Shown here: positions 664 to 22,511 of the stretch, piece after piece
Position numbering within the stretch: position 1 is the stretch's first letter
How the letters are laid out: each line of letters begins with the position of its first letter
Source of the DNA: a virus
Lineage: Duplodnaviria > Caudoviricetes
IMG/VR virus record: IMGVR_UViG_3300037518_000341
Coordinates: 1-27,246 of that record
DNA: 27,246 nt
Direction: 5' to 3' (one strand)
The notes under the pieces: generated by a model
Database searches by the model: none
Told to the model about the DNA's origin: nothing
The model's input: the letters and a program-made list of their open reading frames with translations, nothing else
Translations under genes and position numbers: made by a program

Positions 664-752
664 TATAGTGGGCAGAGAAAAGCCCGGCGGCGTTGAAGCG
701 CCCCGGGATTGGCACGATAGGACGTGACTACCGATGCAACTACAGTTTAGCA
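664..752. promoter_or_regulatory. HNH cassette control element, copy 1
   Basis: TATAGT 664-669; A-rich tract; hairpin CCCGG-C-GGCG/TTGAAG/CGCC-CCGGG 683-707; minus-strand TGCTAAACT at 744-752. Confidence 0.75.
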
Positions 753-1270
753 CGCTTCTCACCACCTCCGATACGTCCCTCTGGCAGAGTCCCCTCCTTC
801 CACCCAGATTCTGGAATAAGGTCAACCCTGACGGCCCAATACCCGCGCATTGCCCTGAATTGGGGCCATGCTGGGTGTGGACTGGGAGTTGTCACCGGCA
901 AGGCTACGGGCGATGCAAGGTTGACGGCACGATGGCACGAGCGCACCGGCACACCTACGCAACCCTCATCCAACCCATCCCTGCGGGCCTAGACGTTTGC
1001 CACCACTGCGACAACCCGCCCTGTGTGCGTCCTTCGCATCTGTTTACTGGAACCGATGCCGACAACTCTGCTGACAAGGTGCGGAAGGGGCGGCGCAACG
1101 ATGCACGGGGTGAACGCAATGGGAGTGCCAAGATGACCGCCGCCAAGGTGCTGGAAATGCGCAGGCTGGCCCGCGAGGGAATGACGCAGTGGGCTATTGC
1201 CCGCCGATTTGGGGTGGGCCAATCACAGGTTTCGCGCATCATTCAGCGAAATCTCTGGGCGCATATTTAG
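734..1270 (+). CDS. HNH endonuclease with C-terminal HTH (MQLQF family, copy 1)
   Basis: CWVWTG..GYG..AHRH..VCHHCDNPPCVRPSHL..GT..DN, then RGE.NG.AK and an HTH. Confidence 0.92.
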   Translation: MQLQFSTLLTTSDTSLWQSPLLPPRFWNKVNPDGPIPAHCPELGPCWVWTGSCHRQGYGRCKVDGTMARAHRHTYATLIQPIPAGLDVCHHCDNPPCVRPSHLFTGTDADNSADKVRKGRRNDARGERNGSAKMTAAKVLEMRRLAREGMTQWAIARRFGVGQSQVSRIIQRNLWAHI

Positions 1271-1286
1271 CTAAGGAGGAATAACG

Positions 1287-2099
1287 ATGCGAGAGGAAAT
1301 AGTCGAAATGGTCACTATCGCTTCTGCGACCCTCACAACCAATAGGGAGGGGCAAGAAGCCTGGAAAACGATGGTCGAGATCCCTTCTTTTCACAGCAAA
1401 TATCCGGTGGGGCCGCTCTGGGTACCGGTGACGCAAGGAGCCTACTTGAAGCAAGGGGATCAGGCAAGGGTCAAACTCCGGCGGGGCCGTCAGAAATCCG
1501 GGAGTGCAGGGACCAACGACTGGGATTATTTCTGGGAATGCGAACAATGGGGCACCGAGGAAGCGCCCACAGAAGCCCCCGCGCCCCCCAGTGAGCCGCG
1601 CAGCGGCAACAGCCAGGATGAGTTCCGGCGATCCAAAGAGCAGATGAATTGGATAGAAGCTCTCAACAACGCGACCCACCTGGTGGCTGCTCTGCTGCGG
1701 ATGCCTGATGCTGACGTACATGGATGGCACAACACGGCAGGCGTACAAGCGGAGATACTGGGCTGGGCATCCTGGTTTTTCGACACCATCCTTGCTGGCC
1801 CGCCGGTGGCCGCTGGGGAGCCGGAGCCAGCCCCCGTGCCGCCGGTGGCCCCGGACCCACCGCCGCAACAGGCCCGCGCTGGCACCAGGAAGGCCGCTGA
1901 CGCCCCAGCAGGACCAGACCCGGTCCCAAGTGCGCTGGTGGCCCTAAATGAGGCCAGGAAGGCCGCTGGGGTGTCCGTCCAGCGGCTCAAGGGGGAGGCT
2001 CACGCGCGGTATGGCACCAATGACATCCGGACTCTGGACGCGCGGAGGATTGACGAACTCACGGCGTCCCTGGTCAACGGCGACCTCGGGCCGGGCTGA
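1287..2099 (+). CDS. Hypothetical protein with Pro/Ala-rich linkers
   Basis: Strong SD (AAGGAGG) before ATG 1287; 270 aa; no family recognised. Confidence 0.75.
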   Translation: MREEIVEMVTIASATLTTNREGQEAWKTMVEIPSFHSKYPVGPLWVPVTQGAYLKQGDQARVKLRRGRQKSGSAGTNDWDYFWECEQWGTEEAPTEAPAPPSEPRSGNSQDEFRRSKEQMNWIEALNNATHLVAALLRMPDADVHGWHNTAGVQAEILGWASWFFDTILAGPPVAAGEPEPAPVPPVAPDPPPQQARAGTRKAADAPAGPDPVPSALVALNEARKAAGVSVQRLKGEAHARYGTNDIRTLDARRIDELTASLVNGDLGPG

Positions 2100-2100
2100 T

Positions 2101-2418
2101 ATGCCCTGGAATAGTGGCGACACGCATCTGCCGGACTGCGCCGTGGGCCTGGTGACCCCGGACCGATTGCTCTGCGCCACCGGCTGGCCGCACCGCTGGT
2201 CCGGCTGGCCTGGCGCGTGGTGTCAGGATTGCGGTCTGCCAGACGCGCACGAAATCTGCATCGGACGAGTCTGCGAGTGCCCTTGCCACGAGGCGTTCTG
2301 GGCCGAGTACGCCACGGCAGAGGCGGCTGATGAAAACATGAATTCGTCATCGCCAGAGGCCGATACAGCGGATTTCCCGCAACAGGCGATGGAGGATTTT
2401 CGTCGTGACAACCAGTAG
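2101..2418 (+). CDS. Cys-rich hypothetical protein
   Basis: ATG 2 nt after the upstream stop; HxW..WC.DC..C..C.CPC pattern; start reassigned from 1948. Confidence 0.6.
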   Translation: MPWNSGDTHLPDCAVGLVTPDRLLCATGWPHRWSGWPGAWCQDCGLPDAHEICIGRVCECPCHEAFWAEYATAEAADENMNSSSPEADTADFPQQAMEDFRRDNQ

Positions 2419-2905
2419 ACTGATTTTTGCTTGCCGAAAGTGCAGCACAACCCGGCGGGACCCCGGCCTGTTCTTCGCCCACATCGACCTGGAGAATCAA
2501 CTATCTCGCCTTGTCGATGTTGGCTGGAAGCGGCAGACCACCCTGGAGAGGGCGCTTAGCCTGACGCTCCCGCGCTGGCGATTCTACGATCTGGTCCTGG
2601 CTCCGACGCTTGACGCGCCGCACCACTCGCTGGGGTTCCTGGCGGGCTGTCAGGACCGCCTGCCGCCGGAACTGCTGGCCCGGGTGGACCAGAGATACAC
2701 TCAGCCGGACCACCCCGAGGTCCACCAACCGGTGGAGTGGTGTCATTTCGCGCCGGGCAGCCATCGAGATGGGTCATATCGCCTGGCTCCGTGCGCGATG
2801 TGTCTCGGTGCAGACCTGGGCAAGGTGATTGAGGGGGCGTTCGCTACGCCCAAGGCCGAGGCGGTGGACATGAATATCCCGAACATCCGACGATTGGAGG
2901 GCTGA
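2405..2905 (+). CDS. Hypothetical protein, possibly Zn-binding
   Basis: GGAGG upstream of GTG; CRKC near the N-terminus and CAMC near the C-terminus. Confidence 0.65.
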   Translation: MTTSRLIFACRKCSTTRRDPGLFFAHIDLENQLSRLVDVGWKRQTTLERALSLTLPRWRFYDLVLAPTLDAPHHSLGFLAGCQDRLPPELLARVDQRYTQPDHPEVHQPVEWCHFAPGSHRDGSYRLAPCAMCLGADLGKVIEGAFATPKAEAVDMNIPNIRRLEG

Positions 2906-2908
2906 CCG

Positions 2909-3109
2909 GTGAAACTTACGATTGACCTGGACGAGGAAACCTTTAAGGCTCTGGAGGCGTGTGCTTTGTCCCGGCGGCGCAGCCCAGAATGCCAGGCTGA
3001 GGTATTTATCCGTATCAAACTGGGGCTGCCATACCCATTCCCCCCGGCGCCCGCACCGGCTAAGGGCATTCCGTTGGCGGGGCCGGGGCACTACGATGCG
3101 GGATCGTGA
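2909..3109 (+). CDS. Ribbon-helix-helix (CopG/Arc-like) DNA-binding protein
   Basis: MKLTIDLDEETFKALEACA..RRRS.E.Q...I fits the RHH strand-helix-helix pattern; GGAGG upstream. Confidence 0.65.
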   Translation: MKLTIDLDEETFKALEACALSRRRSPECQAEVFIRIKLGLPYPFPPAPAPAKGIPLAGPGHYDAGS

Positions 3110-3207
3110 TATACTGGCAGCGGCCAAAAAAGAGTCCCGGCGGTGCTTTCAACACCCCGGGACCACGGCACGATAGGAGTTGGCTACCATGCAGTTAGAT
3201 TTTACCA
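3107..3207. promoter_or_regulatory. HNH cassette control element, copy 2
   Basis: TGATATACT 3107-3115; A-tract; hairpin GTCCCGG-C-GGTG/CTTTCAA/CACC-CCGGGAC 3134-3163; AGGAG SD; minus-strand TGGTAAAAT at 3199-3207. Confidence 0.8.
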
Positions 3208-3761
3208 TGCTTCTCACCCCTGACGCCTCCCTCTGGCAAAGTCCCCTTCTCCCACATCGCTTCTGGGCCAAGGTCAACCTCAACGGCCCGCTGCCACCCC
3301 ATTGCCCTGAACTTGGGCCGTGCTGGGTCTGGACGGCGTACTGCAAGCCGAATGGCTACGGTGCATTTAGGTCTTACGGCAGGATGGTCTACACGCATCG
3401 GCTCAGCTATACCTCCCTGGTCGCCCCGATCCCGGAGGGGCAGGATGTTTGCCACCGCTGCGATAATCGCCCCTGCGTTCGCCCGGGCCACCTGTTTGTC
3501 GGGACGAGGGCGGAGAACATGGCAGACTGTGCGCGGAAGGGGCGGGGTGCCGTTGGTGAGCGCAACGGGAGTGTACTTCATCCGGAGCGGGTGCCCCGTG
3601 GTGAGCGCGTCGGGAGTGCCAAGTTGACTACCGCCAAGGTGCTGGAAATGCGCCGCCTGGCCCGCGCGGGCGTCACCCTCAGGGCAATTGCCAGCCGATT
3701 CGGGGTGGACCATACCACGGTCTGGCAAATCGTTCGGCTGAAAAGCTGGGCGCATGTTTGA
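3189..3761 (+). CDS. HNH endonuclease with HTH (MQLQF family, copy 2)
   Basis: Same motifs as copy 1 (VCHRCDNRPCVRPGHL); ATG 3189 chosen by homology and SD. Confidence 0.92.
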   Translation: MQLDFTMLLTPDASLWQSPLLPHRFWAKVNLNGPLPPHCPELGPCWVWTAYCKPNGYGAFRSYGRMVYTHRLSYTSLVAPIPEGQDVCHRCDNRPCVRPGHLFVGTRAENMADCARKGRGAVGERNGSVLHPERVPRGERVGSAKLTTAKVLEMRRLARAGVTLRAIASRFGVDHTTVWQIVRLKSWAHV

Positions 3762-4029
3762 AGGTCCGGAATGGCAATCACTTTGGGGGCAGGGCTGCTT
3801 TTTTTGCTCCTGGGAGCGTCCCGTGGTCCGGCTGTCGCACACCCGGATCTGTTTTTCTTGCCTTGCCCGGAGCTTCCCGGGCTGGCCGGACGAGTGGATT
3901 CAGGACTGGCTACTCCGGCAGGCGGCGGCGCGACTGGCCCAGAACGCACGGATGGAGCGGCGGCAACCCGAGGGGTGGCAGTTGGAGTTGAGATTGCCTG
4001 AGGGGAACCGTGACCCTGTGGTATACTGA
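3754..4029 (+). CDS. Small hypothetical protein with two CxxC motifs
   Basis: Start overlaps the HNH stop; CFFC and CFSC. Confidence 0.5.
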   Translation: MFEGPEWQSLWGQGCFFCSWERPVVRLSHTRICFSCLARSFPGWPDEWIQDWLLRQAAARLAQNARMERRQPEGWQLELRLPEGNRDPVVY

Positions 4030-4033
4030 CCGG

Positions 4034-4309
4034 GTGAGCCGGGGCATCCTGTCAGGTGCCCGTTCCGATATTCAGGAGACGGGTTCCGCCTCCATGCGGG
4101 GGTTCATCGCGGCGGGATTCCGGCCCTTGCCCGGTTACCAACTGCGTTACATCTACTTCCTGAACCCGGCGGCCCGGCCCCGGCTGACGGTACCGGTTAT
4201 CCCGTTTGAACGCATCAAAGCCATTGGCGCGGCGATGTACAAAGGCAAGCGTCCGAAGGATTCCAGCGAACCGGCGGCTATCCATGCCGCAGCCCCTCGG
4301 CAAGCCTAA
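4034..4309 (+). pseudogene. C-terminal fragment of a Mom-like DNA adenine modification protein
   Basis: GYQLRYIYFLNPAARPRLTVPVIPF..I...GA.MYKG resembles, from memory, the C-terminus of Mom-family proteins. No N-terminal catalytic part is visible upstream. TGGTATACT at 4019-4027 precedes GTG 4034. Confidence 0.55.
4249..4290 (+). pseudogene. Truncated 5' half of a tRNA-Gly(TCC)-like element
   Basis: GCGTCCG acceptor strand, short D-like arm, anticodon arm GCGGC-TATCCAT-GCCGC; no T arm or 3' acceptor strand follows. Confidence 0.55.
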
Positions 4310-4328
4310 TTGCGGGGAAGGATGCAAC

Positions 4329-4739
4329 ATGCCCTACAAAGATCGACAAGCCCACCGGGATGCTACAACTAACAGGGTAAGGGAGCGAAAAGCCGTATGG
4401 TTTTTGGCTAATGGTCCATGCAGGGAATGCGGGTCATGGGACCAACTAGAATTAGACCATATTACCCGAGATGAGAAAGAGGATCATCGTGTGTGGGGGT
4501 GGTCTGATGAGCGGCGGATAGTAGAATTGGCAAAATGCCAAGTATTATGCCAATCCTGCCATAGGACAAAGACGAATCGTGAATTAAGCGAGGCTTTTTC
4601 TCAGCCTATAAAACATGGGGCATTATCAGCGTATGATAAGAAAGGGTGCCGCTGTGATTTATGTAAGGCGGTTAAAAGCACGTACCAGCGGAACCATCGG
4701 GGAATAAGGGGAAGGTTTTCGAATGCGTCCGTCGTCTAA
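4329..4739 (+). CDS. HNH endonuclease (CxxC...DH...CxxCH type), lower GC
   Basis: CRECGS..LELDHI...ELAKCQVLCQSCHRTKT and C-terminal HG...Y...GCRCDLC; start reassigned to ATG 4329. Confidence 0.85.
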   Translation: MPYKDRQAHRDATTNRVRERKAVWFLANGPCRECGSWDQLELDHITRDEKEDHRVWGWSDERRIVELAKCQVLCQSCHRTKTNRELSEAFSQPIKHGALSAYDKKGCRCDLCKAVKSTYQRNHRGIRGRFSNASVV

Positions 4740-4796
4740 AGAGGACACCAGTATTCCATGCTGGGGATGGCACTGCGAAGTGACCCGGACGCTCCA
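4725..4796 (+). tRNA. Non-canonical tRNA-Gly(TCC)-like RNA, 72 nt, CCA encoded
   Basis: Acceptor GCGTCCG/CGGACGC, T discriminator, CCA; D stem GTCT/GGAC; anticodon arm CCAGT-ATTCCAT-GCTGG; T arm GGCAC-TGCGAA-GTG(A)CC. Confidence 0.75.
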
Positions 4797-4816
4797 GACA
4801 CTAGACGGTCCCGGCA

Positions 4817-4842
4817 AGCCCCTTGACGGGTCTTCCGGCCTG
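4817..4842. repeat. Late-region imperfect palindrome, copy 1 of 4
   Basis: AGCCCCTTGACGGGTCTTCCGGCCTG upstream of terS. Confidence 0.6.
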
Positions 4843-4874
4843 TTCCCCATGCTAGACCGCATGGCAAAGGTGAA

Positions 4875-5369
4875 GTGATGGCCTCCACAACTGGCGGGCG
4901 ACCCACCAAGCTAACTCCCGAGGTGCAGAGGCGCATCTGCGACGCGGTGTCGGCTGGGAATTATTACGAGCCTGCCTGCCTGTATGCGGGCATTTCCTAT
5001 CAGTCGCTGCGGAATTGGATACAGCGGGGGGAGAAGGCCAAAAGCGGCATCTACTTTGAGTTTCTCGAGGCCCTTACCCGTGCGGAGGCGGAATGCGAGG
5101 TCCGCATGGTCGCCCAGTGGCGCTCGGCGATGCCGACTGACTGGCGGGCCATCAGGGATTTCCTGGAGCGCCGGTACCCAGAACGTTGGGGCCGCAAGGA
5201 GCGGGTGACGGTGGCCGGAGACCCCGAGGCACCGCTGTACATTGCCCCGGTGGAATCGGACGGGAGCGAGTGGGACCACTTGTCGCCCAGCCAACTCGGA
5301 GTGGAGTTCCAGGACACGCTGAATGAGTACCGACGCCTCTACCAATCTGGAGAGTTCACCCCCAGCTAG
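4875..5369 (+). CDS. terS: Terminase small subunit
   Basis: GRPTKLTPEVQRRIC...GNYYE.AC.YAGIS...NW HTH and DWRA...LERRYPERWGR; lies directly before terL. Confidence 0.85.
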   Translation: MMASTTGGRPTKLTPEVQRRICDAVSAGNYYEPACLYAGISYQSLRNWIQRGEKAKSGIYFEFLEALTRAEAECEVRMVAQWRSAMPTDWRAIRDFLERRYPERWGRKERVTVAGDPEAPLYIAPVESDGSEWDHLSPSQLGVEFQDTLNEYRRLYQSGEFTPS

Positions 5370-6963
5370 CCCCTCGACGGGTCTACCGGCTAGCCAGTCG
5401 CCCGATGCGCCTCTAAGCGAGCCCCTCGACGGGTCTCCCGGCGAGTCGCTGGCCCAGGTGCGGGACAAGCTGCGGGGGCTGCACCAGGCCCTCCTGCGGC
5501 GTGACCCGGTGCTCTGGATTGAGAAAAACTATTTCATCAAGGAGACCTCCCGCCCGATTGTCCTTGAGCGGTTCCAGAAGGCCGTCCTCCGTTACGCCCT
5601 CCAACGCAATGAGGATGGCTCATTCCGCTACCAGACCGTGGTGTGGTCCCAACCCAAGAAGAGTGGCAAGACAGCCGTCTCGGGCGCGGTGGGCCGCTGG
5701 GCCGCGGAGACCTGGGGCCGTTACCAGCAGATATTCTGTGTCGGCAACGACGCCAAGCAGGCCCTCGAACGCGCCTTCCAGAGCATCCGGGAATCGATCC
5801 AACTCGACCCACGGTACGATCCGGGGCGGCAGTCCCTCCCCGGCGAGTGGGCGGTGTTGACGACCCGCCTGGATCATCGCTCCGGCTCCCGCATCTCGGC
5901 GGTGGCCACCGACTACCGGGGCGAGGCTGGCTCCAACCCCTCGCTGTCCATCTGGACCGAGCTTTGGGGCTTTTCCAGTCGCGACGCGCTCCGGTTCTGG
6001 GCCGAGATGGCCCCGTCCCCGCTGCGCCTCAACTCCCTCCGATGGGTGGAGACCTACGCTGGCTATGAGGGCGAGAGCGAACTCCTGGAGGAACTCTACG
6101 CCAACATCGTCGTCAACGGGCGGCAGCTGACGGCGGGCGAATTGGGCGACCTGGGTTGCTTCCCCGAATCGCCCAACCCCAACGACCTGGTGCCCTGCTA
6201 CGTGGACGATGCCGCGGGAGCCTTCGCCTATTGGGATGAGGGCGACGTGGCCCGCCGGATGCCCTGGCAGCAGGGACCACGGGGTGAGCAATATTACGCC
6301 AACGAAGCCGCCACCCAGACGCCGAAACAGGTTGACCGGCTCCACCGCAACAAGTGGGTGTCCACCGAGACCAACTTCGTGCCGGTCGAACTCTGGGACG
6401 CCTGCGGGCACCGTCCGCCGCCGCCTTTGCTGCCTGGCGACCAGACCCCGATGGTGGTGGCGCTGGACGCCGCTATCACCGGAGACTGCTTCGGCCTGGT
6501 CGGGGTGACCCGGGACCCGGATAACCCCGACGAAGGGGTGATTGTCCGGGTGGTCCACAAGTGGGAGCCGGACGGTACGCCCCTGGATTTCGAGGCGGTG
6601 GAGCAGGTGGTGAAGCGCCTGGCGGCCAACTACAACGTGGTGCAGTTCGCTTATGACCAGTACCAGCTACACGACTTCAGCACCCGGCTCCGCAAGGCGG
6701 ACGTGGGCTGGTTCAAGGTGTTCTCCCAGGGCGATGACCGGCTGAAGGCCGACAAGCAGTTGTGGGACCTGATCGTGAACCGGCGCGTGCGGCATGATGG
6801 GAACCACGAGTTGCGGGGCCACATCATGAACGCCAACGCCAAGCAGTCGGCCAACGAGGACACCCGGCTGCGGATTGTTAAGAAGTCCGCCAAGCGTCAC
6901 ATCGACCTGGCGGTGTGCCTCAGCATGGCGTCCTATGAGTGTTTGCGCTTATCTCTTTATTGA
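5323..6963 (+). CDS. terL: Terminase large subunit
   Basis: Walker A QPKKSGKT, Walker B-like IWTELW, nuclease VVALDAA...FAYDQYQ...KRHIDLAV. Exact start uncertain. Confidence 0.93.
   Translation: MSTDASTNLESSPPASPSTGLPASQSPDAPLSEPLDGSPGESLAQVRDKLRGLHQALLRRDPVLWIEKNYFIKETSRPIVLERFQKAVLRYALQRNEDGSFRYQTVVWSQPKKSGKTAVSGAVGRWAAETWGRYQQIFCVGNDAKQALERAFQSIRESIQLDPRYDPGRQSLPGEWAVLTTRLDHRSGSRISAVATDYRGEAGSNPSLSIWTELWGFSSRDALRFWAEMAPSPLRLNSLRWVETYAGYEGESELLEELYANIVVNGRQLTAGELGDLGCFPESPNPNDLVPCYVDDAAGAFAYWDEGDVARRMPWQQGPRGEQYYANEAATQTPKQVDRLHRNKWVSTETNFVPVELWDACGHRPPPPLLPGDQTPMVVALDAAITGDCFGLVGVTRDPDNPDEGVIVRVVHKWEPDGTPLDFEAVEQVVKRLAANYNVVQFAYDQYQLHDFSTRLRKADVGWFKVFSQGDDRLKADKQLWDLIVNRRVRHDGNHELRGHIMNANAKQSANEDTRLRIVKKSAKRHIDLAVCLSMASYECLRLSLY
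5368..5445. repeat. Late-region motif, copies 2 and 3 (52-bp spacing)
   Basis: AGCCCCTCGACGGGTCT exact at 5368-5384 and 5420-5436, each followed by nCCGGCnAG. Confidence 0.7.
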
Positions 6964-6968
6964 ATGTG

Positions 6969-6977
6969 TGCTACACT
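6969..6977 (+). promoter_or_regulatory. Extended -10 for a probably leaderless HNH mRNA
   Basis: TGCTACACT, then 7 nt, then ATG 6985. Confidence 0.55.
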
Positions 6978-6984
6978 ACACGCC

Positions 6985-7524
6985 ATGAAAACGTGTAGTG
7001 TAGCAATATGTCCTCACCAAGCTAAGACGAAGGGGTTCTGTAATCCTCACTATCAGCGTCTATGGCGGACGGGAACTGTTAATGCTGAAACCCCAATCAT
7101 GCCCAGAATCATTGGCGATGATGACGCTCGGTTCTGGAGCAAGGTGAACAAAACCGAGACCTGCTGGGAATGGTTGCCCCCAACCATGAAAGGCTACGGG
7201 ATATTCCGCCTTTCTAAGAGAAACATTCTGGCGCATAGGTTTAGCTTCGAGTTATCTGGGAAGATCATTCCTCTGGGATTACAACTGGACCACTTATGCC
7301 GCAATAGAAGATGTGTGCGCCCCGAACATCTGGAAGTTGTGACCAATCGGGAGAACTCTTTGCGGGGTGAAAGCCTCAATGCCCAAAATGCCAGAAAAAC
7401 TACTTGCAAGCGTGGGCACCCCTTTGACGATGTAAATACCTATCGGATGCCGAATGGCAATCGCAATTGTCGTATCTGCCGACATGAGGCTCGTTTACGG
7501 CACTATGTCGCAACCGGCAAGTAG
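6985..7524 (+). CDS. HNH endonuclease with N- and C-terminal Zn-binding motifs, AT-rich
   Basis: CS...C......GFC..HYQR; RFWSKV..CWEW..GYG..AHR..LDHLCRNRRCVRPEHLE.VT.REN; KTTCKRGH..CRIC. Confidence 0.92.
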   Translation: MKTCSVAICPHQAKTKGFCNPHYQRLWRTGTVNAETPIMPRIIGDDDARFWSKVNKTETCWEWLPPTMKGYGIFRLSKRNILAHRFSFELSGKIIPLGLQLDHLCRNRRCVRPEHLEVVTNRENSLRGESLNAQNARKTTCKRGHPFDDVNTYRMPNGNRNCRICRHEARLRHYVATGK

Positions 7525-7565
7525 GTCTTCAAGCTCAGTGGGGCCAGTCAATCTGTGAGGACCTG

Positions 7566-8054
7566 ATGCCAATAGCCTGTTACCGCATCCGCGAGATTAA
7601 GCGGTCGGCGTCCGATGACGGCCTGTACATGGTGGTGGATTTCTGGGACTCCGAGGCGGACCTGACCGGGGGCCAGCCCCCGGCGCTGTCGAACTCATTC
7701 CGCTTCCCTGGCCCCCTGCGGACCACCAAGCTGCAATTCGTGCGGGACCGTGACGGCCTGTACCACCGGCTCAGCGATGACACCTGGGTAACTGAGGAGG
7801 TGGCCGCTGACCTGCTGTCCGCCGAGTTGGAGACGGCGGAGGTGGCGGTTAACCACGTCGCCGTCTTGCACGACGCCATTGCCCGGTACATTGGCCGGGC
7901 GAACCTGCACGGTCAAGGGTCTATCGACACTCTGCATCCGGTGGATGATGAGCCGGACACCGCCGGGGTGGTCCGGCGGCAGGCGGTACAGGATGAGGTG
8001 GGCGTGGGGTACGGGCGGTCAATTGACCGCCCCAACAGTTGGGAGCGGCTGTAA
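7566..8054 (+). CDS. Hypothetical protein
   Basis: GAGG SD, host-like codon use, abuts the next gene. Confidence 0.7.
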   Translation: MPIACYRIREIKRSASDDGLYMVVDFWDSEADLTGGQPPALSNSFRFPGPLRTTKLQFVRDRDGLYHRLSDDTWVTEEVAADLLSAELETAEVAVNHVAVLHDAIARYIGRANLHGQGSIDTLHPVDDEPDTAGVVRRQAVQDEVGVGYGRSIDRPNSWERL

Positions 8055-9854: not shown

Positions 9855-9865
9855 CGGGGCCAACG
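9823..9865 (+). repeat. 16-bp tandem duplication (about 2.7 copies)
   Basis: CGGGGCCAACGCATGA at 9823-9838 and 9839-9854, plus CGGGGCCAACG. Confidence 0.9.
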
Positions 9866-9904
9866 AGGCGGTGGCGGCCCATGACGGGACAAATGCCGTT
9901 GAGG

Positions 9905-10006
9905 TGATATACTAGGAGTAAGCCAAAAAGAGTCCCGGCGGTGCAGAAACACCCCGGGACCACGGCAAACGATAGGGAGATCTACCGATGCAACTACAGT
10001 TTAGCA
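9905..10006. promoter_or_regulatory. HNH cassette control element, copy 3
   Basis: TGATATACT 9905-9913; A-tract; hairpin GTCCCGG-C-GGTG/CAGAAA/CACC-CCGGGAC 9932-9960; minus-strand TGCTAAACT at 9998-10006. Confidence 0.8.
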
Positions 10007-10569
10007 CGCTTCTCACCACCCCCGACGCTTCCCTCTGGCAAAGTCCGCTTCTCCCGGCCCGTTTTTGGGTCAAGGTCAACCCCGCTGGCCCCATGCCTGA
10101 GCATTGCCTTGAGATTGGCCAGTGCTGGGTCTGGACGGGGGCTTGCAACTCGGATGGCTACGGCCAATTCAAGGCTGCCAGCAGGATGGCCGGCGCCCAC
10201 CGGCATCTCTACGCCGCTCTGTTAGCCCCCCTTCCGGATGGCCTCCATGTTTGCCACCGCTGCGACAATCCGCCCTGCGTGCGGCCCGGCCATCTGTTTA
10301 CTGGGACTCCGGCTGATAACGCCGCTGACCGGGAACGGAAGGGGCGAAACAACCCACCCCGAGGTGAGCGGCACGGGAGATATACCCATCCCGAGCAAAC
10401 CGCCCGTGGTGAGGGGCATGGGAGCGCCAAACTGAACACCACCAAGGTCCTGGAAATCCGCAGGCTAGCAAGTGAGGGTCTAACCAAGGCAGCTATTGCC
10501 CGCCAATTCGGGGTGAGCCAGGCCCTGGTGGGGTACATCATCCGGCGGGAAATCTGGGCACACGTATAG
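9988..10569 (+). CDS. HNH endonuclease with HTH (MQLQF family, copy 3)
   Basis: VCHRCDNPPCVRPGHL..GT.ADN and a C-terminal HTH. Confidence 0.92.
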   Translation: MQLQFSTLLTTPDASLWQSPLLPARFWVKVNPAGPMPEHCLEIGQCWVWTGACNSDGYGQFKAASRMAGAHRHLYAALLAPLPDGLHVCHRCDNPPCVRPGHLFTGTPADNAADRERKGRNNPPRGERHGRYTHPEQTARGEGHGSAKLNTTKVLEIRRLASEGLTKAAIARQFGVSQALVGYIIRREIWAHV

Positions 10570-10571
10570 AA

Positions 10572-10599
10572 TTGGCGGGCAATGGCGACATGGTATACT
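10572..10599 (+). promoter_or_regulatory. Sigma70-type promoter
   Basis: TTGGCG-N16-TATACT with a TGn extension, upstream of 10629. Confidence 0.5.
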
Positions 10600-10628
10600 G
10601 AGTTGAGTCAACGCTGCTGAGGTCACCG

Positions 10629-11039
10629 ATGGCGCTTCGTTTTAACCTTTTATTCGGCCAGATGCGGCCCGCGCCCCAAGGCCAGGCCATTGGTCTGACC
10701 CTCATGGGGACCCCCGCCAGCACGCCGGGTAAGGACGACCTCAGCGCCGACGGCAAGATGTACTACCGGCGCAAGCGCCCCATCAAGAGCCTCCAGTTGC
10801 GGAGCCTGGATGGGAGCCGGGCGGCGGTGCTGTACACCACCGACGCCCTGGGCAATATCACGGTGGACGCGCCGGGCCACCAGAACACTCTGATGCAGAT
10901 GGGTTGGCCGCTCTACCAGGGGCCAGGCACCGGCCCGGTGACCCTGGACCAACTGCTATTCCCCAGGCCGTATCTGGGCACCAGTGACCCCTATTACCGA
11001 GTAATCCTCGCAGAATTGGAGGCCCGTAAAGGTGGCTAA
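10629..11039 (+). CDS. Hypothetical protein
   Basis: GAGGT SD; overlaps the next start. Confidence 0.65.
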   Translation: MALRFNLLFGQMRPAPQGQAIGLTLMGTPASTPGKDDLSADGKMYYRRKRPIKSLQLRSLDGSRAAVLYTTDALGNITVDAPGHQNTLMQMGWPLYQGPGTGPVTLDQLLFPRPYLGTSDPYYRVILAELEARKGG

Positions 11040-11511: not shown

Positions 11512-11525
11512 ACCCGGAGGGGCAC

Positions 11526-11885: not shown

Positions 11886-11888
11886 ACA

Positions 11889-14888: not shown

Positions 14889-14891
14889 CCG

Positions 14892-15299
14892 GTGGGTATG
14901 CGGTACGACCCGATTGGGATCAATCCGAAACTGCCACGGGGTAACGAGTTCGCGGTGGCGGCGGAGCAGGAACTTTCCGGGTTCATCAAGAACCTCCAGC
15001 GCACGGCCCAGACCTACCCGCCCCAGCGTCACCCGGGCCACAGCAGGACCGGCACCCTGCGGCGCTCCTGGTCCAGTGGTACAATGCGGAGCACTGGACG
15101 CATCGTAGGCGAGGTGGGGTCAAACAGTGGGATGGCCCCGTACAACCGCAAAGTGCAGGGGGAGAATGCGGAGCGGGCGTTCTGGGCTGAGGGGTATGGG
15201 TGGCCGGGAGTGGATTCCCTGGCCCACGATGTGACCCAGTTTCTGCCCCTGGTTATCCAGCAGGCGATTGACCGAGTGCTGGACCAGGCCGGAGCATGA
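14892..15299 (+). CDS. HK97 gp10-like morphogenesis protein
   Basis: YPP...RTGTLRRSW...GEVGSN...Y motif. Confidence 0.65.
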   Translation: MGMRYDPIGINPKLPRGNEFAVAAEQELSGFIKNLQRTAQTYPPQRHPGHSRTGTLRRSWSSGTMRSTGRIVGEVGSNSGMAPYNRKVQGENAERAFWAEGYGWPGVDSLAHDVTQFLPLVIQQAIDRVLDQAGA

Positions 15300-17044
15300 T
15301 GGACCAGGACAAAGAGCAGGACGTTTGGGATCGCTTCTGGAACCTCGTGGACAAGCCCGAAAATTGGCAGGATGCTGACACTTGCTGGAACTGGCTCGGC
15401 GCGGTGGACGGCAAGGGCTACGGGCGGTTCAACAGCGGCGACGGCACCGTCATTGCCCATCGGTTCAGCTACCTCAAGGATCATCAACTGGCCGAGGGAA
15501 TGCAACTGGACCACACCTGCCGGAACACCAACTGCGTTCGCCCGGCACATCTGGAGCCGGTGACCCTGGAAGAAAACGTCCGACGGGAGTTTGCTGCGAT
15601 GGCTGATGCCAAGGATGCCACGATGGAGAACATCGACAACAAGGGGTTTGGCTCCCCGATGGACAGCATGGATATTGCGTGGGAACTGGAGTCCCGCAAG
15701 TTCGAGCAGGCCGAGGTGAACTACAATCCTCTCGGTGCCACCGCTGACCAGGGGTGCGCCAACTGCCAGTGGTTCCTCAATCCCGGCTACTGTCTGCTGG
15801 TGCGGGACTGGCCCCAGCCAATTACGCCCAATGGCCTGTCGGATCAGTGGATGGCTCGGGTGCTGCCCGAGGATATGATGAAGGCCAAGGCGGGGTATCA
15901 ACGGCGTCACCGCCAACGTCCGTATGGCGTCAAGCCGAAGATGGAGGGCAAGGGTCTGCTCCACCGGGTGGCGGCGAAGCTCCGGGGCGATGCTGGGCCA
16001 GAGGCTGAGCCAGCCCCCCAGCCATTGGAGAACGACTGGTTTTTCACCAAGACCAAGGACGGCAACCTTTGGTGGATGGCGGTTGCCACCAACAACTTCC
16101 GCGACAACGATTACCCGCCGGAGGTGTTCACGGCCAAGGCTCATCAAAAACTCATGGCCCGGTATGAGAGCGGCGCGACCCCGCTCCCAGAACTGTGGTA
16201 CTGGCACACTCCGGGAACCCGCTGGGGCGAGGCTAAAATGGCGGGCTTCGACGATGGCCTGGTCTGGTACGCTGGCACCGTGGACCCCGGCATGGAGCAT
16301 GTCGCCCAGAAGGTGGCGGCCTTGGCCCCGTTCCTGCGGGTTTCGCACGGCTACCGGAACTTTTCGTATGACGACAAGGCTCGTGGTATAATTGGCGAAT
16401 ATGAGACATTTGAAGTCTCCCCGTTGCCTCTTTCCCGCGAGGCCAACCCATTAACAGCGTTCGCCGTGAGCGATAAGGAGATGGACAGCATGGAGATCAC
16501 CAGGGAGAAGCGAGACCACCTGGTCGGGGTATTCGGCCCCGATTGGGTGAAGAACTTTGAGGCTCGGGGCACCGCCCTGGTGAACCAGGGCAAGGCCGAA
16601 GGGCGGGAACAGAAGGACCAGACCAGCCCACCGGTGCCCGATCCGGCACCGGCACCGGCTGCCACCAATACGCCGGCCCCGGCGCCCACCGCCACGGTGC
16701 CTACCCCGGAACCGGATCAGAAGGCTCAGGCTGATGCCCTGGCCGTGGCGCTGGTGGCGTCGCCGGGCTTCAAGGCCATCAACGATACCCTTGGCATGGT
16801 GGCCACCGAACTGCCCGCGCTCAAGGAGCGGCTGACCAGGGTGGAGACGCAGTTGAAGCAGGGCGATGAGGCCCGGCTGGACGCGCTGGTGGCGGCCCGC
16901 ATCGCGGTGCCCCAGCCCGGCACGGCACCCTCGGAGAAGGCCAGCAATGTGGTCACCGGCGACCAGGCCACCAAGGACTACGGAGCGCCTAACCTGGGCT
17001 TTGACCCGCAGTTCCTCTCCTCGGTGGGCACGTCCACCCGTTAA
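15296..17044 (+). CDS. Putative prohead protease/scaffold with N-terminal HNH and HiPIP-like Cys domains
   Basis: Lies directly before the capsid gene; HNH (LDHTCRNTNCVRPAHLEPVT.EEN); CANCQWF..C..V...I.PNG; protease-like NNFRD...LWYWH...SHG...E.S.LP...ANP.T; Pro-rich and coiled-coil tail. Confidence 0.7.
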   Translation: MMDQDKEQDVWDRFWNLVDKPENWQDADTCWNWLGAVDGKGYGRFNSGDGTVIAHRFSYLKDHQLAEGMQLDHTCRNTNCVRPAHLEPVTLEENVRREFAAMADAKDATMENIDNKGFGSPMDSMDIAWELESRKFEQAEVNYNPLGATADQGCANCQWFLNPGYCLLVRDWPQPITPNGLSDQWMARVLPEDMMKAKAGYQRRHRQRPYGVKPKMEGKGLLHRVAAKLRGDAGPEAEPAPQPLENDWFFTKTKDGNLWWMAVATNNFRDNDYPPEVFTAKAHQKLMARYESGATPLPELWYWHTPGTRWGEAKMAGFDDGLVWYAGTVDPGMEHVAQKVAALAPFLRVSHGYRNFSYDDKARGIIGEYETFEVSPLPLSREANPLTAFAVSDKEMDSMEITREKRDHLVGVFGPDWVKNFEARGTALVNQGKAEGREQKDQTSPPVPDPAPAPAATNTPAPAPTATVPTPEPDQKAQADALAVALVASPGFKAINDTLGMVATELPALKERLTRVETQLKQGDEARLDALVAARIAVPQPGTAPSEKASNVVTGDQATKDYGAPNLGFDPQFLSSVGTSTR

Positions 17045-17046
17045 CA

Positions 17047-17072
17047 AGCCCCTGGCCGGGTCTTCCGGCCAG
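17047..17072. repeat. Late-region motif, copy 4 (perfect 8-bp inverted repeat)
   Basis: AGCCCCTGGCCGGGTCTTCCGGCCAG upstream of the capsid gene. Confidence 0.65.
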
Positions 17073-17126
17073 TTAATCGGGAACCAGGTTTGCTCAGCGA
17101 CGCATTTGGATTGAGAGGTTAAGACC

Positions 17127-18626: not shown

Positions 18627-18643
18627 ATACTGCTACATATCTG

Positions 18644-18672
18644 TTGCTAACGCTGCCATTCCCGTATATAAT
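18644..18672 (+). promoter_or_regulatory. Sigma70 promoter for a probably leaderless HNH mRNA
   Basis: TTGCTA-N17-TATAAT, then 7 nt, then ATG 18680. Confidence 0.7.
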
Positions 18673-18679
18673 TACAGGA

Positions 18680-19198
18680 ATGGCAGCTTCTTTTTGTTCA
18701 GTAAATGGATGTGACAAACCGGCTAATGCTCGGACGCTTTGTAGTTCCCATTATCATCGGTTCATGCGACATGGAGATCCGGAAGGAGGGCCGCACTATT
18801 ACCGAAAACGCCCGGCATCAGAACGCTTCTGGGCATATGTCAAAAAAGAGGTTGACGGATGTTGGCTATTTAGGAAAGGGAGAAATCAGGACGGTTACTG
18901 CACATTTGAAACTGAGTCTTGGCCAAAGCGTAAGTCTATGTTGGCCCATCGTTATTCATTTCAATTAGCCTATGGCCGGCCACCGGAAGGCGAATTAAAT
19001 CATCTATGCTATGTACGTAATTGTGTTAATCCTGCTCATCTCACAGAAGTGACAAAGATGGAACATATCTTAGAAGGCAACGAACGGCGAAGAGTGGAAC
19101 GGCTGACGTATCGATTGATAGAACGATTAGCGGAAGACTACGGCTGCGCCCTTGACGATATCTTGGCTGGCAGAGTAAGGTTGCAAATACAATCCTAA
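18680..19198 (+). CDS. HNH endonuclease with N-terminal Zn motif, AT-rich
   Basis: CSVNGC..LCSSHYHR; RFWAYV..GCWL..AHRYSF..LNHLCYVRNCVNPAHL. Confidence 0.88.
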   Translation: MAASFCSVNGCDKPANARTLCSSHYHRFMRHGDPEGGPHYYRKRPASERFWAYVKKEVDGCWLFRKGRNQDGYCTFETESWPKRKSMLAHRYSFQLAYGRPPEGELNHLCYVRNCVNPAHLTEVTKMEHILEGNERRRVERLTYRLIERLAEDYGCALDDILAGRVRLQIQS

Positions 19199-19245
19199 CC
19201 ACCAGGCGGGGGGTGATGGCCTCGCCTGGTATTCCTCCTCGGCGC

Positions 19246-19284
19246 GAGGGGCGGGGACTTGGGTCTCCCCGCCCCTCTTCTTTT
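19246..19284 (+). terminator. Rho-independent terminator after the capsid/HNH genes
   Basis: GAGGGGCGGGGA/TCCCCGCCCCTC 12-bp stem plus TTCTTTT; a second hairpin at 19201-19230. Confidence 0.8.
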
Positions 19285-19288
19285 CGTG

Positions 19289-19384
19289 TATAATGTGAGC
19301 AAGAAAAAGTCCCGGCGGTGAGTTGAAGCACCCCGGGACGCGGCACGATAGTTTGGAGGTCTACCATGCAACTACAGTTTAGCA
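19289..19384. promoter_or_regulatory. HNH cassette control element, copy 4
   Basis: TATAAT 19289-19294; A-tract; hairpin GTCCCGG-C-GGTG/AGTTGAAG/CACC-CCGGGAC 19309-19339; GGAGG; minus-strand TGCTAAACT at 19376-19384. Confidence 0.8.
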
Positions 19385-19875
19385 CAAGGGCCCCCCTCGA
19401 CAATCTCCTCTTTGGCAGTCCGCTACTCCCGGCCCGGTTCTGGGCCAAAGTCAATCCCTTCGGCCAACTGCCCACGCATTGCCCGGAACTTAGCCAGTGC
19501 TGGGTCTGGACGGCGTACTGCCGGCCGGATGGCTACGGCCAATTCAGGTCTTACGGCAGGCTGGTCTACACGCACCGGCTCAGTTACGCCGCCCTGGTCT
19601 CCCCCATCCCCGAGGGGCTGCACGTCCTCCACCACTGTGACAATCCCCCCTGTGTGCGGCCTGGACACCTGTTTGCTGGTACGCAGGTAGACAACGTGGC
19701 CGACATGATCAGGAAGGGGCGGCATTGGAACTCGAAACTGAACGATGCCAAGGTACTCGAAATCATCAGGCGGGCCAGCCAGGGCCTCACCCAGCCCGAG
19801 ATTGCCCGCCAATTTGGTGTGAGCCGTAGCATAGTCGGGCAAATCGTCCGGCGGGAAGTATGGAAGCATCTGTAA
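19366..19875 (+). CDS. HNH endonuclease with HTH (MQLQF family, copy 4)
   Basis: VLHHCDNPPCVRPGHL..GTQ.DN and an HTH. Confidence 0.92.
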   Translation: MQLQFSTRAPLDNLLFGSPLLPARFWAKVNPFGQLPTHCPELSQCWVWTAYCRPDGYGQFRSYGRLVYTHRLSYAALVSPIPEGLHVLHHCDNPPCVRPGHLFAGTQVDNVADMIRKGRHWNSKLNDAKVLEIIRRASQGLTQPEIARQFGVSRSIVGQIVRREVWKHL

Positions 19876-20068
19876 TTAATTCGTCGCCTCAATGCGCCGT
19901 TATTGCGGATTTCCCGCACTAGGAGATAGCCAGAATTCGTCATCTTCATTTTAGGTGTATACTTCCGATTGGCCGGGGACTGTCGCTGGTTTCCCGGCCA
20001 TCCCGGGGGTCGCGGGCGAGGGGGAACCCCCGTCCGCGACGTTAAAATCTCTGAGCGACCAGGAGATT

Positions 20069-21061
20069 ATGGACCGTGTCTTTATAACCGGCGGCGCTGG
20101 CTACCTCGGACGAGCGCTAGTGGCCCACCTGCTGACCCAGCACCCCGAGCATCCTCAGGTCACCGTCTACTCCCGAGATGAGGAAAAGCTGGCCCGGCTG
20201 CGGGCGCGATACCCTCACCCTCTCCTACTCACCACCATCGTTGGCGACGTGACCGACGCCCATCACCTCACCATGCAGATGCAGGATCACGACACCGTGA
20301 TCCACTGCGCCGCCATGAAATTCGTCCCGGAATGCGAACTCCAGCCCAGCGAGGCCATCCGCGTTAACCTGCTGGGCAGCCAGATGGTGGCCGCCAGCGC
20401 CGCCAACGTGCCGAGCGTGAAGGACGTGGTGGCAATCAGCACCGACAAGGCGTGCCAGCCCATCAACACCTACGGGGCCACGAAGATGCTCATGGAGCGT
20501 CTCTGGGTGGAGTACAACAAGTGGTGCCCGGCGAACTACCACCTGGTGCGATACGGCAATGTGATCGCCAGCACGGGTAGCGTGGTGGGAATCTGGCGTG
20601 CCCAGATGGAGGCCCAGCAGCAGTTGACCCTCACCGACCCCCTGATGACGCGCTTCTGGTGTGGCGTGGGTGACGCGGTGCAACTGATTCTGCGCAGCCT
20701 GGAGGAGCCGGGGGGAACCATCCTGGTGCCGGAGTTGCCGAGTTCCACGATGGACGAATTGGCCGAAGCGTGTTGGGGCCTGTTCGCTGGACCTACGGCC
20801 CGGGTTTGGGACCTGAACCATTGCACCAGGATCATTGGCAACCGTGGGGGCGAAAAGAGTACCGAGACCCTCATTACGGCGCACGAACGATGGGAGAGTG
20901 AGTCCGCCGGGTGCCTGGGCACCATGCCGCTCCAACGGTTGATTCCGGGCCAACCTATATCACCCACCGGATGCGAAGCCTACACCAGCGAGCACCCCGA
21001 GCACTGGCTGACACAGAGTGAGTTGATCAACCTGCTGATTGAGGCCGTCCGGTGGGAGTGA
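20069..21061 (+). CDS. UDP-GlcNAc 4,6-dehydratase-like (PseB/FlaA1/CapD family)
   Basis: TGGAGYLG, SRDEEK, AAMKFVP..E, STDKA..P.N.YGATK, VRYGNV..S.GSV, TDP.MTRF, GEK..E.L; AGGAG SD before ATG 20069. Confidence 0.92.
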   Translation: MDRVFITGGAGYLGRALVAHLLTQHPEHPQVTVYSRDEEKLARLRARYPHPLLLTTIVGDVTDAHHLTMQMQDHDTVIHCAAMKFVPECELQPSEAIRVNLLGSQMVAASAANVPSVKDVVAISTDKACQPINTYGATKMLMERLWVEYNKWCPANYHLVRYGNVIASTGSVVGIWRAQMEAQQQLTLTDPLMTRFWCGVGDAVQLILRSLEEPGGTILVPELPSSTMDELAEACWGLFAGPTARVWDLNHCTRIIGNRGGEKSTETLITAHERWESESAGCLGTMPLQRLIPGQPISPTGCEAYTSEHPEHWLTQSELINLLIEAVRWE

Positions 21062-21855
21062 TCACGGTCACCGGCGCGGAGGGGATGCTGGGCAGGGCGG
21101 TGACCAACGAGCTTGGGCGGCGGAAACTGCCCCACCTGGCGTCGTCCCGGCATTGGGTGGACATTGGCGACATGAACCGGCACGACTGGCACTGGCTCGG
21201 CTTTGACCGCAACCGTGAGCCAGGGCTGGTGATTAACTGCGCTGGCATTGTGCGCCCCCGGCAGTTGCCAGCGAGTGAGTATATCCGGGTCAACTCCTTC
21301 GGCTCCCACAACCTGGCCGAGCATTGCGGGCGGCTGGTGCAGGTGTCCACCGATTGCGTCTTCGATGGCCTGACCAGACACACTTACGGCGAGTCCTCGC
21401 CGCCCAGCCCGGGCGACCTGTACGGCCTGAGCAAGCTGGCCGGGGAGGTCACCTATGGACCACACCTCACCGTGCGCTGTTCGTTCCTGGGGTTCAGCCC
21501 GAAGAAATTAGGGTTGCTGGACTGGTTCCTGGGCCAGCCCTCGGGCGCGACGGTGGAGGGCTGGACCTCCCGCTGGAGCGGCTGGTTCGTCGATGACCTG
21601 GCGGGGCGGTTAATCGATCTGGCGCTGGACTCGTCCATCACGGGGCTGGCGCATCTGCCGGGCGCATACGCAATGAAGGTCCATATCCTGGAGGCCGTCG
21701 GCAGCCGGTTACGCCCGGATATCCGGGTCGTGCCCACTGACCGGGGAGGCAACCTGAGGCTATGCACCGAGCGCCAGGACACCCTGGAAATCCTGGGGGA
21801 GTATTCGTTCGAGGAGATGATCGAGAATATCTGCGCAGCGCGTAAAGTAGTATAA
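21052..21855 (+). CDS. NDP-4-keto-6-deoxysugar reductase (RmlD-like)
   Basis: VTGAEGMLG, VINCAG, VSTDCVFDG, Y.E...P.P.D.YGLSKLAGE. Confidence 0.9.
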   Translation: MGVITVTGAEGMLGRAVTNELGRRKLPHLASSRHWVDIGDMNRHDWHWLGFDRNREPGLVINCAGIVRPRQLPASEYIRVNSFGSHNLAEHCGRLVQVSTDCVFDGLTRHTYGESSPPSPGDLYGLSKLAGEVTYGPHLTVRCSFLGFSPKKLGLLDWFLGQPSGATVEGWTSRWSGWFVDDLAGRLIDLALDSSITGLAHLPGAYAMKVHILEAVGSRLRPDIRVVPTDRGGNLRLCTERQDTLEILGEYSFEEMIENICAARKVV

Positions 21856-21951
21856 TGGCGGTGAGCCAAAAAGAGTCCCGGCGATGGTATCACATCCCGG
21901 GACCGTGGCATCGAAGGAGGCCAATCCAAACGATGCAGTTACAGTTTACCA
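21851..21951. promoter_or_regulatory. HNH cassette control element, copy 5
   Basis: TATAAT 21851-21856; A-tract; hairpin GTCCCGG-C-GATG/GTATCA/CATC-CCGGGAC 21875-21903; AAGGAGG; minus-strand TGGTAAACT at 21943-21951. Confidence 0.8.
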
Positions 21952-22511
21952 CGCTTCTATCCCCCGACGCTCCCCTCTGGGGCAGTCCGCTTCTCCCACC
22001 ACGCTTCTGGAGCAAGGTTAACCCCGCTGGCCCCCTACCTGACCATTGCCCTGAACTGGGGCAGTGCTGGGTATGGATGGCAGGCACCGCCGGTAGTGGC
22101 TATGGCGAATTCAGTGTCGGCAGCCGTTCCGATGGGACACGAAGACTGGTCTACACGCACCGGCACATCTATGCCACTCTCATTGGCCCAATCCCGGATG
22201 GTCTGTACGTCCTCCACCGCTGTGACAACCCTCCCTGTGTTCGGCCTGGGCATCTGTTTGATGGGACTGCGGCAGATAACCAATCGGACATGAGCCGGAA
22301 GGGGCGGCACGGGAGCGTTCGCCACCCCGAACGAATGGCACGTGGTGAGCGCAACGGGAATTCCAAGTTGAACGATGCCAAGGTATTCGAAATTCACAGG
22401 CTGACCAGGGCTGGCATGACTCAGACCGCCATCGCCCGCCGATTCTTGGTGAGCCGTATGACTGTTAGGCGCATCATCCGGCGCGAAAACTGGAGGCAAG
22501 TTGAGGACTAA
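21933..22511 (+). CDS. HNH endonuclease with HTH (MQLQF family, copy 5)
   Basis: VLHRCDNPPCVRPGHL; start reassigned to ATG 21933 by homology. Confidence 0.92.
   Translation: MQLQFTTLLSPDAPLWGSPLLPPRFWSKVNPAGPLPDHCPELGQCWVWMAGTAGSGYGEFSVGSRSDGTRRLVYTHRHIYATLIGPIPDGLYVLHRCDNPPCVRPGHLFDGTAADNQSDMSRKGRHGSVRHPERMARGERNGNSKLNDAKVFEIHRLTRAGMTQTAIARRFLVSRMTVRRIIRRENWRQVED

Follow-up and report, generated by a model that had tools for sequence, protein, structure and literature searches.

The closest described counterparts of the element reported here, a two-hairpin leader found before five HNH endonuclease genes of a virus (Duplodnaviria; Caudoviricetes; IMG/VR record IMGVR_UViG_3300037518_000341, positions 1 to 27,246, the whole of which is called the window below), are the antisense RNAs of transposable elements. 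IS10 RNA-OUT arises from one of two opposing promoters and covers the translation start; it acts in trans, pairs over 35 bp through its terminal loop domain and the 5' end of the mRNA, and exerts a control that rises with copy number. The art200 RNA of IS200, 90 nucleotides (nt) long, is antisense to the 5' untranslated region and first codons of the single transposase to which it is tied, pairs via terminal loops, faces one long stem-loop that hides the Shine-Dalgarno sequence, and blocks 30S binding (both as given in the available parts of PMC4513863). Among phages, P22 sar RNA and lambda OOP RNA are small antisense RNAs that each lower one protein, controlling the life-cycle regulators ant and cII at a single locus, and the CfrI antisense RNA of cyanophage S-PM2 adjoins a homing endonuclease gene but, in the sections of PMC12197685 that treat these RNAs, is linked to psbA and its 3' end and is not described as covering the endonuclease start. 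Free-standing and intron-borne homing endonucleases of T-even phages (I-TevI, I-TevII, I-TevIII, segB, and mobE) have a dedicated RNA-level limit of another kind, namely, sense-strand hairpins over the ribosome binding site (RBS) that are released by a nearby late promoter; the passages of PMC2988022 on these genes mention no dedicated antisense RNA.

Each of the five leaders in the window probably encodes a cis-antisense RNA of 64 to 69 nt that would block ribosome binding. The predicted layout matches that of art200, but the predicted RNA has two short hairpins, the RBS hairpin of the mRNA is weakened by A·C mismatches, the leader precedes many unrelated genes, and no sequence or Rfam match connects the two. 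Compared with RNA-OUT, the predicted overlap comprises nearly the whole leader and two hairpins, and action in trans is putative. The leader would also differ from sar and OOP as a portable head on selfish genes, and the strand asymmetry of its hairpins is opposite to that of the T-even hairpins: a hairpin stable on the mRNA, with a promoter so placed that late transcripts lack its 5' arm, was not found in the leaders. The transposase antisense RNAs are a closer match than symE/SymR, which an earlier note, made from the letters of the window, had named beside IS10; no observation points to a toxin, and the downstream genes include those for integrases and Rep proteins. The comparison with Rfam proposed in that note was run, and Rfam 15 covariance models (with RNA-OUT, sar, C4, and ctRNA among them, if catalogued) gave no leader match at E ≤ 5 in the window or at E ≤ 2 in 20 other loci. 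As predicted, the leader would work like RNA-OUT and art200, yet it lies outside every Rfam family tested.

The window overlaps a 54,869-bp metagenome contig (L061, L079, L087, and L088) and encodes terminase, portal/head genes, and sugar-modifying enzymes. The proteins of all five HNH open reading frames (ORFs) (Table 1) had an HNH_3 match (Pfam E values of 1e-7 to 1e-10), with the zf-His_Me_endon profile also matched, and with copy 3 as the reference the other copies were 62 to 68% identical. Residues H90, C92, C97, H102, and N111, which we take to be the catalytic and metal-binding residues of the motif, were invariant in 56 HNH sequences. Judged by ratios of nonsynonymous to synonymous substitution rates of 0.23 to 0.41, the proteins are under purifying selection. 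The predicted fold was confident (predicted local distance difference test score of 90); a fold search ranked I-HmuI and I-PpoI first, weakly (E of 0.06 to 0.14; TM score of about 0.3), and sequence searches of the PDB found no relative of the nuclease. The window proteins share His-Me-finger domain matches with I-HmuI and I-PpoI but are free-standing and carry a C-terminal helix-turn-helix (HTH) domain, and their cleavage activity is putative. An intact His-Me-finger nuclease domain is combined with the DNA-binding HTH, and each cassette is likely a free-standing HNH homing-endonuclease gene. Several HNH-type genes of other families also occur in the window, none of them with the two-hairpin leader, and a search with model R1 found no sixth leader copy there.

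The architecture of the leader was then compared among the five copies. The hairpin pattern matched five times in the window and not once in 100 shuffles, and a sense -10 box (TAnnnT) and an A-tract were present in all five cassettes, as the earlier note had stated; the TG extension of the sense box was confined to copies 2 and 3. The conserved stem that it had described stands as far as the compensatory changes go (GGCG/CGCC in copy 1 and GATG/CATC in copy 5), whereas the outer GT/AC pairs are absent from copy 1. The minus-strand extended -10, TGnTAAA(C/A)T, was found in 5/5 copies within codons 4 to 7, at +11 to +19 with the A of ATG as +1 (the +10 to +18 first given counts that A as 0), so that every copy has an opposite-strand promoter motif just inside the start of its target. 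Only 2 of the 25 other window genes have a minus-strand TAnnnT starting at +7 to +14. The opposing -10 boxes lie 80 to 92 bp apart, start to start. The GGCA..CGA segment is indeed present, but it proved to be an arm of a second hairpin that the note had missed, which spans the RBS and start codon and has G·U pairing on the minus strand. Transcription ordinarily starts 7 nt past the -10 hexamer, and the antisense start predicted in this way, opposite +4, is the first base of this RBS hairpin. The predicted RNA, structured and complementary to the RBS and AUG, would consist of a 5' hairpin over both, a short linker, a bulged GC hairpin, and a U-run, which is weakest in copy 1. In 11 family cassettes (5 from the window and 6 from related phages), 96.8% of cells pair, and 3 of the 20 pairs change on both sides, all in the bulged hairpin. 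The fifth codon, for Phe, is TTT in 11/11 of these cassettes (45 TTT versus 149 TTC in other window genes), and the extended -10 persists through S/T, Q/D/Y, and T/M/I changes. The minus strand is favored in the folding of copies 2 to 4.

To extend the comparison, the hairpin pattern was searched beyond the window. The leader recurs in phages, metagenomes, and actinobacterial genomes: 120 viral loci (about 530 estimated), 121 genome loci (about 670 estimated; largely Solirubrobacterales, Streptomyces, and Kitasatospora), and 101 metagenome loci matched, counts that include chance matches. A first set was filtered by stem extension and upstream A content only, a filter blind to the promoter, and 160 of 318 distinct flanked matches passed; these include 4 window copies and many related Solirubrobacterales loci. 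A minus-strand TAnnnT starting at +7 to +14 was present in 114 of the 146 passing matches with a start codon, compared with 23 of 100 others, among which are some true members. Eighty-six dereplicated representatives, selected for having the -10, were then analyzed with a strand-neutral stem finder. Non-Watson-Crick pairs of the 5' hairpin were G·U on the minus strand in 110 cases and on the plus strand in 2 (963 versus 647 in shuffles), the first paired base lay 7 to 8 nt past the -10 in 77/86, and the minus-strand fold was the more stable in 80/86 (53% of shuffles). An anti-Shine-Dalgarno-like word overlapped the 5' loop in 58/86 by a loose match that has no control. A MAFFT alignment of the wide family retained 80 of the 86 rows (L082, L096, L179, L185, L223, and L345 were dropped as doubtful); since MAFFT could not align the 5' hairpin across this family, the pair counts were made by scripts on all 86.

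Because the representatives had been picked for the -10, the test was repeated on a second set with a different stem and the same promoter-blind filter, which 73 of 113 matches passed. The minus-strand TAnnnT was at a fixed distance in 69/73 of these, the predicted start fell on the base of the RBS hairpin in 63/69, and wobble pairs were G·U on the minus strand in 97 cases versus 7. A third stem pattern, mostly chance matches with 2 clear members among 115, served as a control; the -10 was found in 6/107, and wobble pairs numbered 46 versus 51. The antisense -10 is thus conserved in wider homologues, as the earlier note required. The G·U bias suggests selection for the minus-strand form of the structure, the constant spacing between promoter and hairpin suggests that this structure is transcribed, and the overlap makes the leader itself the perfect target of the predicted RNA. 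Every comparative test of the proposal that an antisense RNA covers the start codon and RBS came out in its favor, with the RNA itself still a prediction.

Next, the genes behind the leader were surveyed. In the first set, 72 downstream ORFs were chosen from 155 rows, with short ORFs and near-duplicates left out: 22 encoded nucleases (HNH_3, HNH, GIY-YIG, T5orf172, and EndoVII), 6 integrases or recombinases, 1 a Rep_trans protein, 4 HTH proteins, and 4 other proteins, and 35 had no match. In the second set, 33 of 53 downstream ORFs, those on longer loci, were taken; 12 encoded nucleases (one by a weak LAGLIDADG match), 2 recombinases, 1 a Rep protein, 2 HTH proteins, and 3 other proteins, and 13 had no match. 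Conversely, when HNH relatives were collected by protein, the two-hairpin layout was seen by eye in 6 of 41 distinct sequences, some with diverged stems; with start codons picked by rule of thumb, the -10 was at +8 to +11 in 5 of these 6, compared with 3 of the 35 others (anywhere from +6 to +18). Since the leader precedes varied genes and only 6/41 HNH relatives have it, leader and nuclease assort independently; the leader is, as far as these annotations tell, one control head attached to unrelated selfish genes. Cultured Gordonia phages, Horus, Asapag, and Vivi2 among them, have the leader before annotated HNH genes, in Vivi2 with a stem variant outside the search patterns and the -10 at +8. 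The Vivi2 cassette (L394:1460-1600) lies opposite tail genes, with the antisense promoter and terminator predicted for it oriented in the direction of the late operon. Leader BLAST searches against plasmids and phages gave mostly noise; the exceptions were phages of Gordonia, Rhodococcus, and Microbacterium and two plasmids of Kitasatospora. Of 101 genomes from the class around G001, 9 contained the strict pattern, and by eye only the matches in G001 resemble members. A guessed low-GC variant pattern matched 0 viral stretches.

In Solirubrobacterales-type loci, the ATG of the hairpin is often not a start, and the gene begins 60 to 90 nt later; the minus-strand -10 is retained there, within non-coding DNA. 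A complement of the hairpin arm lies downstream, adjoining the true RBS, in 39 of 56 such loci. When the antisense-covered part was masked in the 36 scorable loci, predicted RBS accessibility was lower in 23 and higher in 1, and its mean moved from 0.41 to 0.33. This modeled shift is modest and hints at an antisense-triggered switch, which would act in that direction.

The mobility of the cassettes was examined in related contigs. A contig of run X7 (shorter side of 210 nt) has 43 other bases in place of positions 3103 to 3786, with copy 2. Positions 9927 to 10610, with copy 3, are absent from contigs of runs X4 (shorter side of 40 nt) and X5 (19 nt), with the joint in the A-tract 5 nt before the stem. 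Together with the cassettes that related phage loci L059 and L125 carry at sites empty in the window, these give filled and empty alleles among related phages, as for homing endonucleases. In L125, the first codons of the gene at 2405 recur in recoded form after the cassette, so that this insertion is read as a gain; the empty allele of copy 3 retains a cassette-like upstream promoter and may be a loss. No empty allele of copy 1, 4, or 5 was seen among related contigs; the run-contig comparison covered copies 1 to 3. Synonymous difference among the copies is about 0.5, and the copies are therefore old. The earlier note had pictured a module spread within one genome, which is too narrow because the copies are old, cassettes occupy different sites in related phages, and HNH genes are not the only ones with the leader. 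A 53-nt repeat occurs twice (2338 to 2390 and 19875 to 19927; 74% identical), once directly after cassette 4 and once just upstream of the L125 insertion site. Two mosaic proteins were also observed in the family: P0007 joins the N-terminal part of copy 3 to the C-terminal part of P0013, and P0004 joins the N-terminal part of P0016 to the C-terminal part of copy 3, which suggests swaps of nuclease and HTH halves. Two more family members, P0014 and P0015, were recorded on the 54,869-bp contig, and the full genome therefore probably holds at least seven cassettes.

We favor a mechanism in which sense and antisense promoters both fire. The antisense RNA would start opposite +4 from the promoter in codons 4 to 7, would end after the bulged second hairpin, and would often hold an anti-Shine-Dalgarno in its 5' loop region. 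On the mRNA, A·C mismatches would weaken the RBS hairpin and leave the RBS open until the antisense RNA binds, with pairing probably beginning by loop contacts, as in IS200. Enzyme output would thus stay low and be buffered against a rising copy number of the phage DNA, and the nuclease would cut or nick cassette-less alleles and hence spread. The earlier note had suggested that silencing could be copy-specific. Cognate duplexes were indeed the strongest, with net energies of -87 to -95 kcal/mol, but non-cognate pairs within copies 2 to 4 still reached -38 to -50 kcal/mol by this rough RNAduplex estimate, and specificity is plausible but partial. A wider proposal, which we offer as speculative, joins a free-moving leader head with trans antisense immunity, loop-based compatibility groups, and the Solirubrobacterales switch: a resident cassette would silence incoming cassettes with matching loops, loop divergence would let seven or more paralogues coexist in one phage, and the antisense-triggered fold-back in Solirubrobacterales would hide a distant RBS.

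Several observations weigh against cis-antisense repression. The antisense transcript, its start site, and the repression are predictions. Among 15 sequencing runs that cover window positions 301 to 10300, none was listed as RNA, which counts neither for nor against expression. A consensus scanner did not call the antisense promoters, which have no -35, and no -35 is conserved in the 86 representatives; terminators were not called either, their stems being bulged, despite the GC stem and U-run of the window copies, and in the wider family the U-run is weak (3 to 4 U per 8 nt in 49/86 and ≥5 in 24). For copies 1 and 5, the folds of the two strands are about equally stable. Conservation of the hairpin core arises by construction, since the search patterns preselect the hairpin. 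The 11 cassettes are related, so that their TTT codons are not 11 independent events, and TTT is frequent in the remainder of the cassette genes (10 TTT versus 12 TTC). Downstream, 48 of 105 ORFs were without a Pfam match, and a few are not of mobile type (peptidase M10, SBP_bac_5, and AAA). Finally, filled and empty alleles alone give no direction.

Four other explanations were considered. The antisense promoter may be real and repress by interfering with transcription from the sense promoter that faces it; the short RNA would then be a by-product, which its hairpins only stop and stabilize. Two -10 boxes do face each other at short range, and pairing would be unnecessary; but the conserved 5' hairpin that begins at +1 with minus-strand G·U pairs, and the downstream hairpin-arm complement of the Solirubrobacterales-type loci, are left unexplained, and we regard interference as unlikely to be the main mode. 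Interference and RNA pairing are inseparable by sequence, and both could act together. It is very unlikely that the small RNA acts mainly on another target, such as a neighboring gene, a host mRNA, or a protein, with the leader overlap a side effect. Conservation of the bulged second hairpin does exceed what self-pairing requires, and this hairpin is common to unrelated genes, as such a target would predict, but that conservation is partly imposed by the search patterns and diverged stems exist. Variation is free in the 5' hairpin and in both loops, as it should be in an RNA whose target is its own complement.

Control of the T4 type, in which the hairpin hides the RBS of the mRNA and the protein sequence accounts for the minus-strand -10, has the merit of a documented mechanism for I-TevI, I-TevII, I-TevIII, segB, and mobE (in the relevant part of PMC2988022), and the RBS hairpin of copy 5 is stable on the plus strand. 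We nevertheless consider it highly improbable: in both sets, positions mismatched as A·C on the mRNA pair as G·U on the other strand, the sense -10 is upstream of both hairpins and inside neither, and the minus-strand -10 persists across unrelated proteins and non-coding DNA. Slightly less probable still is that the hairpins are single-stranded-DNA signals for a cassette-moving recombinase or transposase. The cassettes are polymorphic, and a conserved bulged base and strand asymmetry are features of attC-like and IS200-end-like sites with their extrahelical base; yet a -10 box at transcription-start distance is not expected of such signals, no common recombinase lies downstream, and the cassette boundaries are off the hairpins in L059, L125, and copy 2. 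RNA searches can pick up attC sites, as part of PMC5737381 describes. A guide RNA of the HEARO/IscB type was rejected, as the protein is an HNH_3-HTH protein of 170 to 190 amino acids and the leader also fronts non-nucleases.

Table 1. Positions of the five HNH cassettes, their predicted leader features, and associated sites in the window
Feature	Position	Strand	Remarks
Copy 1 HNH_3 + HTH endonuclease gene	734..1270	+	178 amino acids
Copy 1 sense -10 (predicted)	664..669	+	
Copy 1 antisense RNA (predicted)	674..737	-	5' hairpin 737-712, bulged hairpin core 707-683, U-run
Copy 1 antisense extended -10 (predicted)	744..752	-	in codons 4-7
Copy 2 HNH gene	3189..3761	+	190 amino acids
Copy 2 sense extended -10 (predicted)	3110..3115	+	
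Copy 2 antisense RNA (predicted)	3127..3192	-	hairpins 3192-3168 and core 3161-3136
Copy 2 antisense extended -10 (predicted)	3199..3207	-	
Copy 3 HNH gene	9988..10569	+	193 amino acids
Copy 3 sense extended -10 (predicted)	9908..9913	+	kept in cassette-less allele
Copy 3 antisense RNA (predicted)	9925..9991	-	hairpins 9991-9965 and core 9958-9934
Copy 3 antisense extended -10 (predicted)	9998..10006	-	
Promoter-like site, 3' end of cassette 3	10572..10599	+	faces downstream gene
Copy 4 HNH gene	19366..19875	+	169 amino acids
Copy 4 sense -10 (predicted)	19289..19294	+	just behind strong sense terminator 19246-19277
Copy 4 antisense RNA (predicted)	19302..19369	-	hairpins 19369-19343 and core 19337-19311
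Copy 4 antisense extended -10 (predicted)	19376..19384	-	
Copy 5 HNH gene	21933..22511	+	192 amino acids
Copy 5 sense -10 (predicted)	21851..21856	+	
Copy 5 antisense RNA (predicted)	21868..21936	-	hairpins 21936-21908 and core 21901-21877
Copy 5 antisense extended -10 (predicted)	21943..21951	-	
Empty site	2416..2459	+	related phage locus L125 has a cassette here, within 5' end of gene at 2405
Empty site	24303..24438	+	stretch replaced by a cassette in related phage locus L059

Other features of the window were recorded alongside the cassettes. An unrelated HNH_3 gene (6964 to 7524) has a long near-perfect hairpin over its first codons (6964 to 7009), and that gene is missing from a contig of run X4, in which 6941 is joined directly to 7548. 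The HNH gene at 18644 to 19198 has its own promoter-like site and is absent from related locus L053, which runs from the gene upstream of it directly to the hairpins before cassette 4. At 15296 to 17044, an HNH_3 domain is fused to the N terminus of a 582-amino-acid gene product, just upstream of a 499-amino-acid gene at 17127. The portal/head gene at 11889 to 14888 carries an intein domain, and inside the intein region is a 273-amino-acid ORF on the opposite strand (13956 to 14777, minus) with HTH and weak REase_MTES_1575 matches. Four copies of a 40-nt repeat (at 4813, 5364, 5416, and 17043) lie in the surroundings of the terminase genes and ahead of the gene at 17127; a packaging or regulatory site is possible. 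The 599-amino-acid protein encoded at 8055 to 9854 has repeats of about 24 residues, and the copy number of a 16-nt tandem unit near 9804 differs from that of L061.

Literature searches found no earlier description of the leader, although a catalogued match could hide in the supplements of PMC10690425 and PMC5737381. The supplements of Fremin et al. (PMC10690425) that were searched, files 1, 2, and 4 being excluded, held no motif match, and the main-text passages of Weinberg et al. (PMC5737381) do not mention HNH. Motif strings were not found in the Streptomyces transcriptome supplements (PMC11678152 and PMC4895711) that were available, whose tables may hold coordinates only.

The antisense control known so far concerns a few transposases and phage regulators, with a separate locus for each. 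The leader would be one uncatalogued RNA architecture with hundreds of occurrences, placed before nucleases of unrelated folds, integrases, and replication proteins. If cis-antisense repression is borne out, it would explain in general how phages that lack late promoters of the T4 type keep free-standing homing endonucleases harmless, the odd N-terminal sequences of these proteins would be promoter imprints, and compact RNA regulators with variable loops would become available for actinobacterial genetics. The cultured Gordonia phages that carry the element make it testable cheaply.

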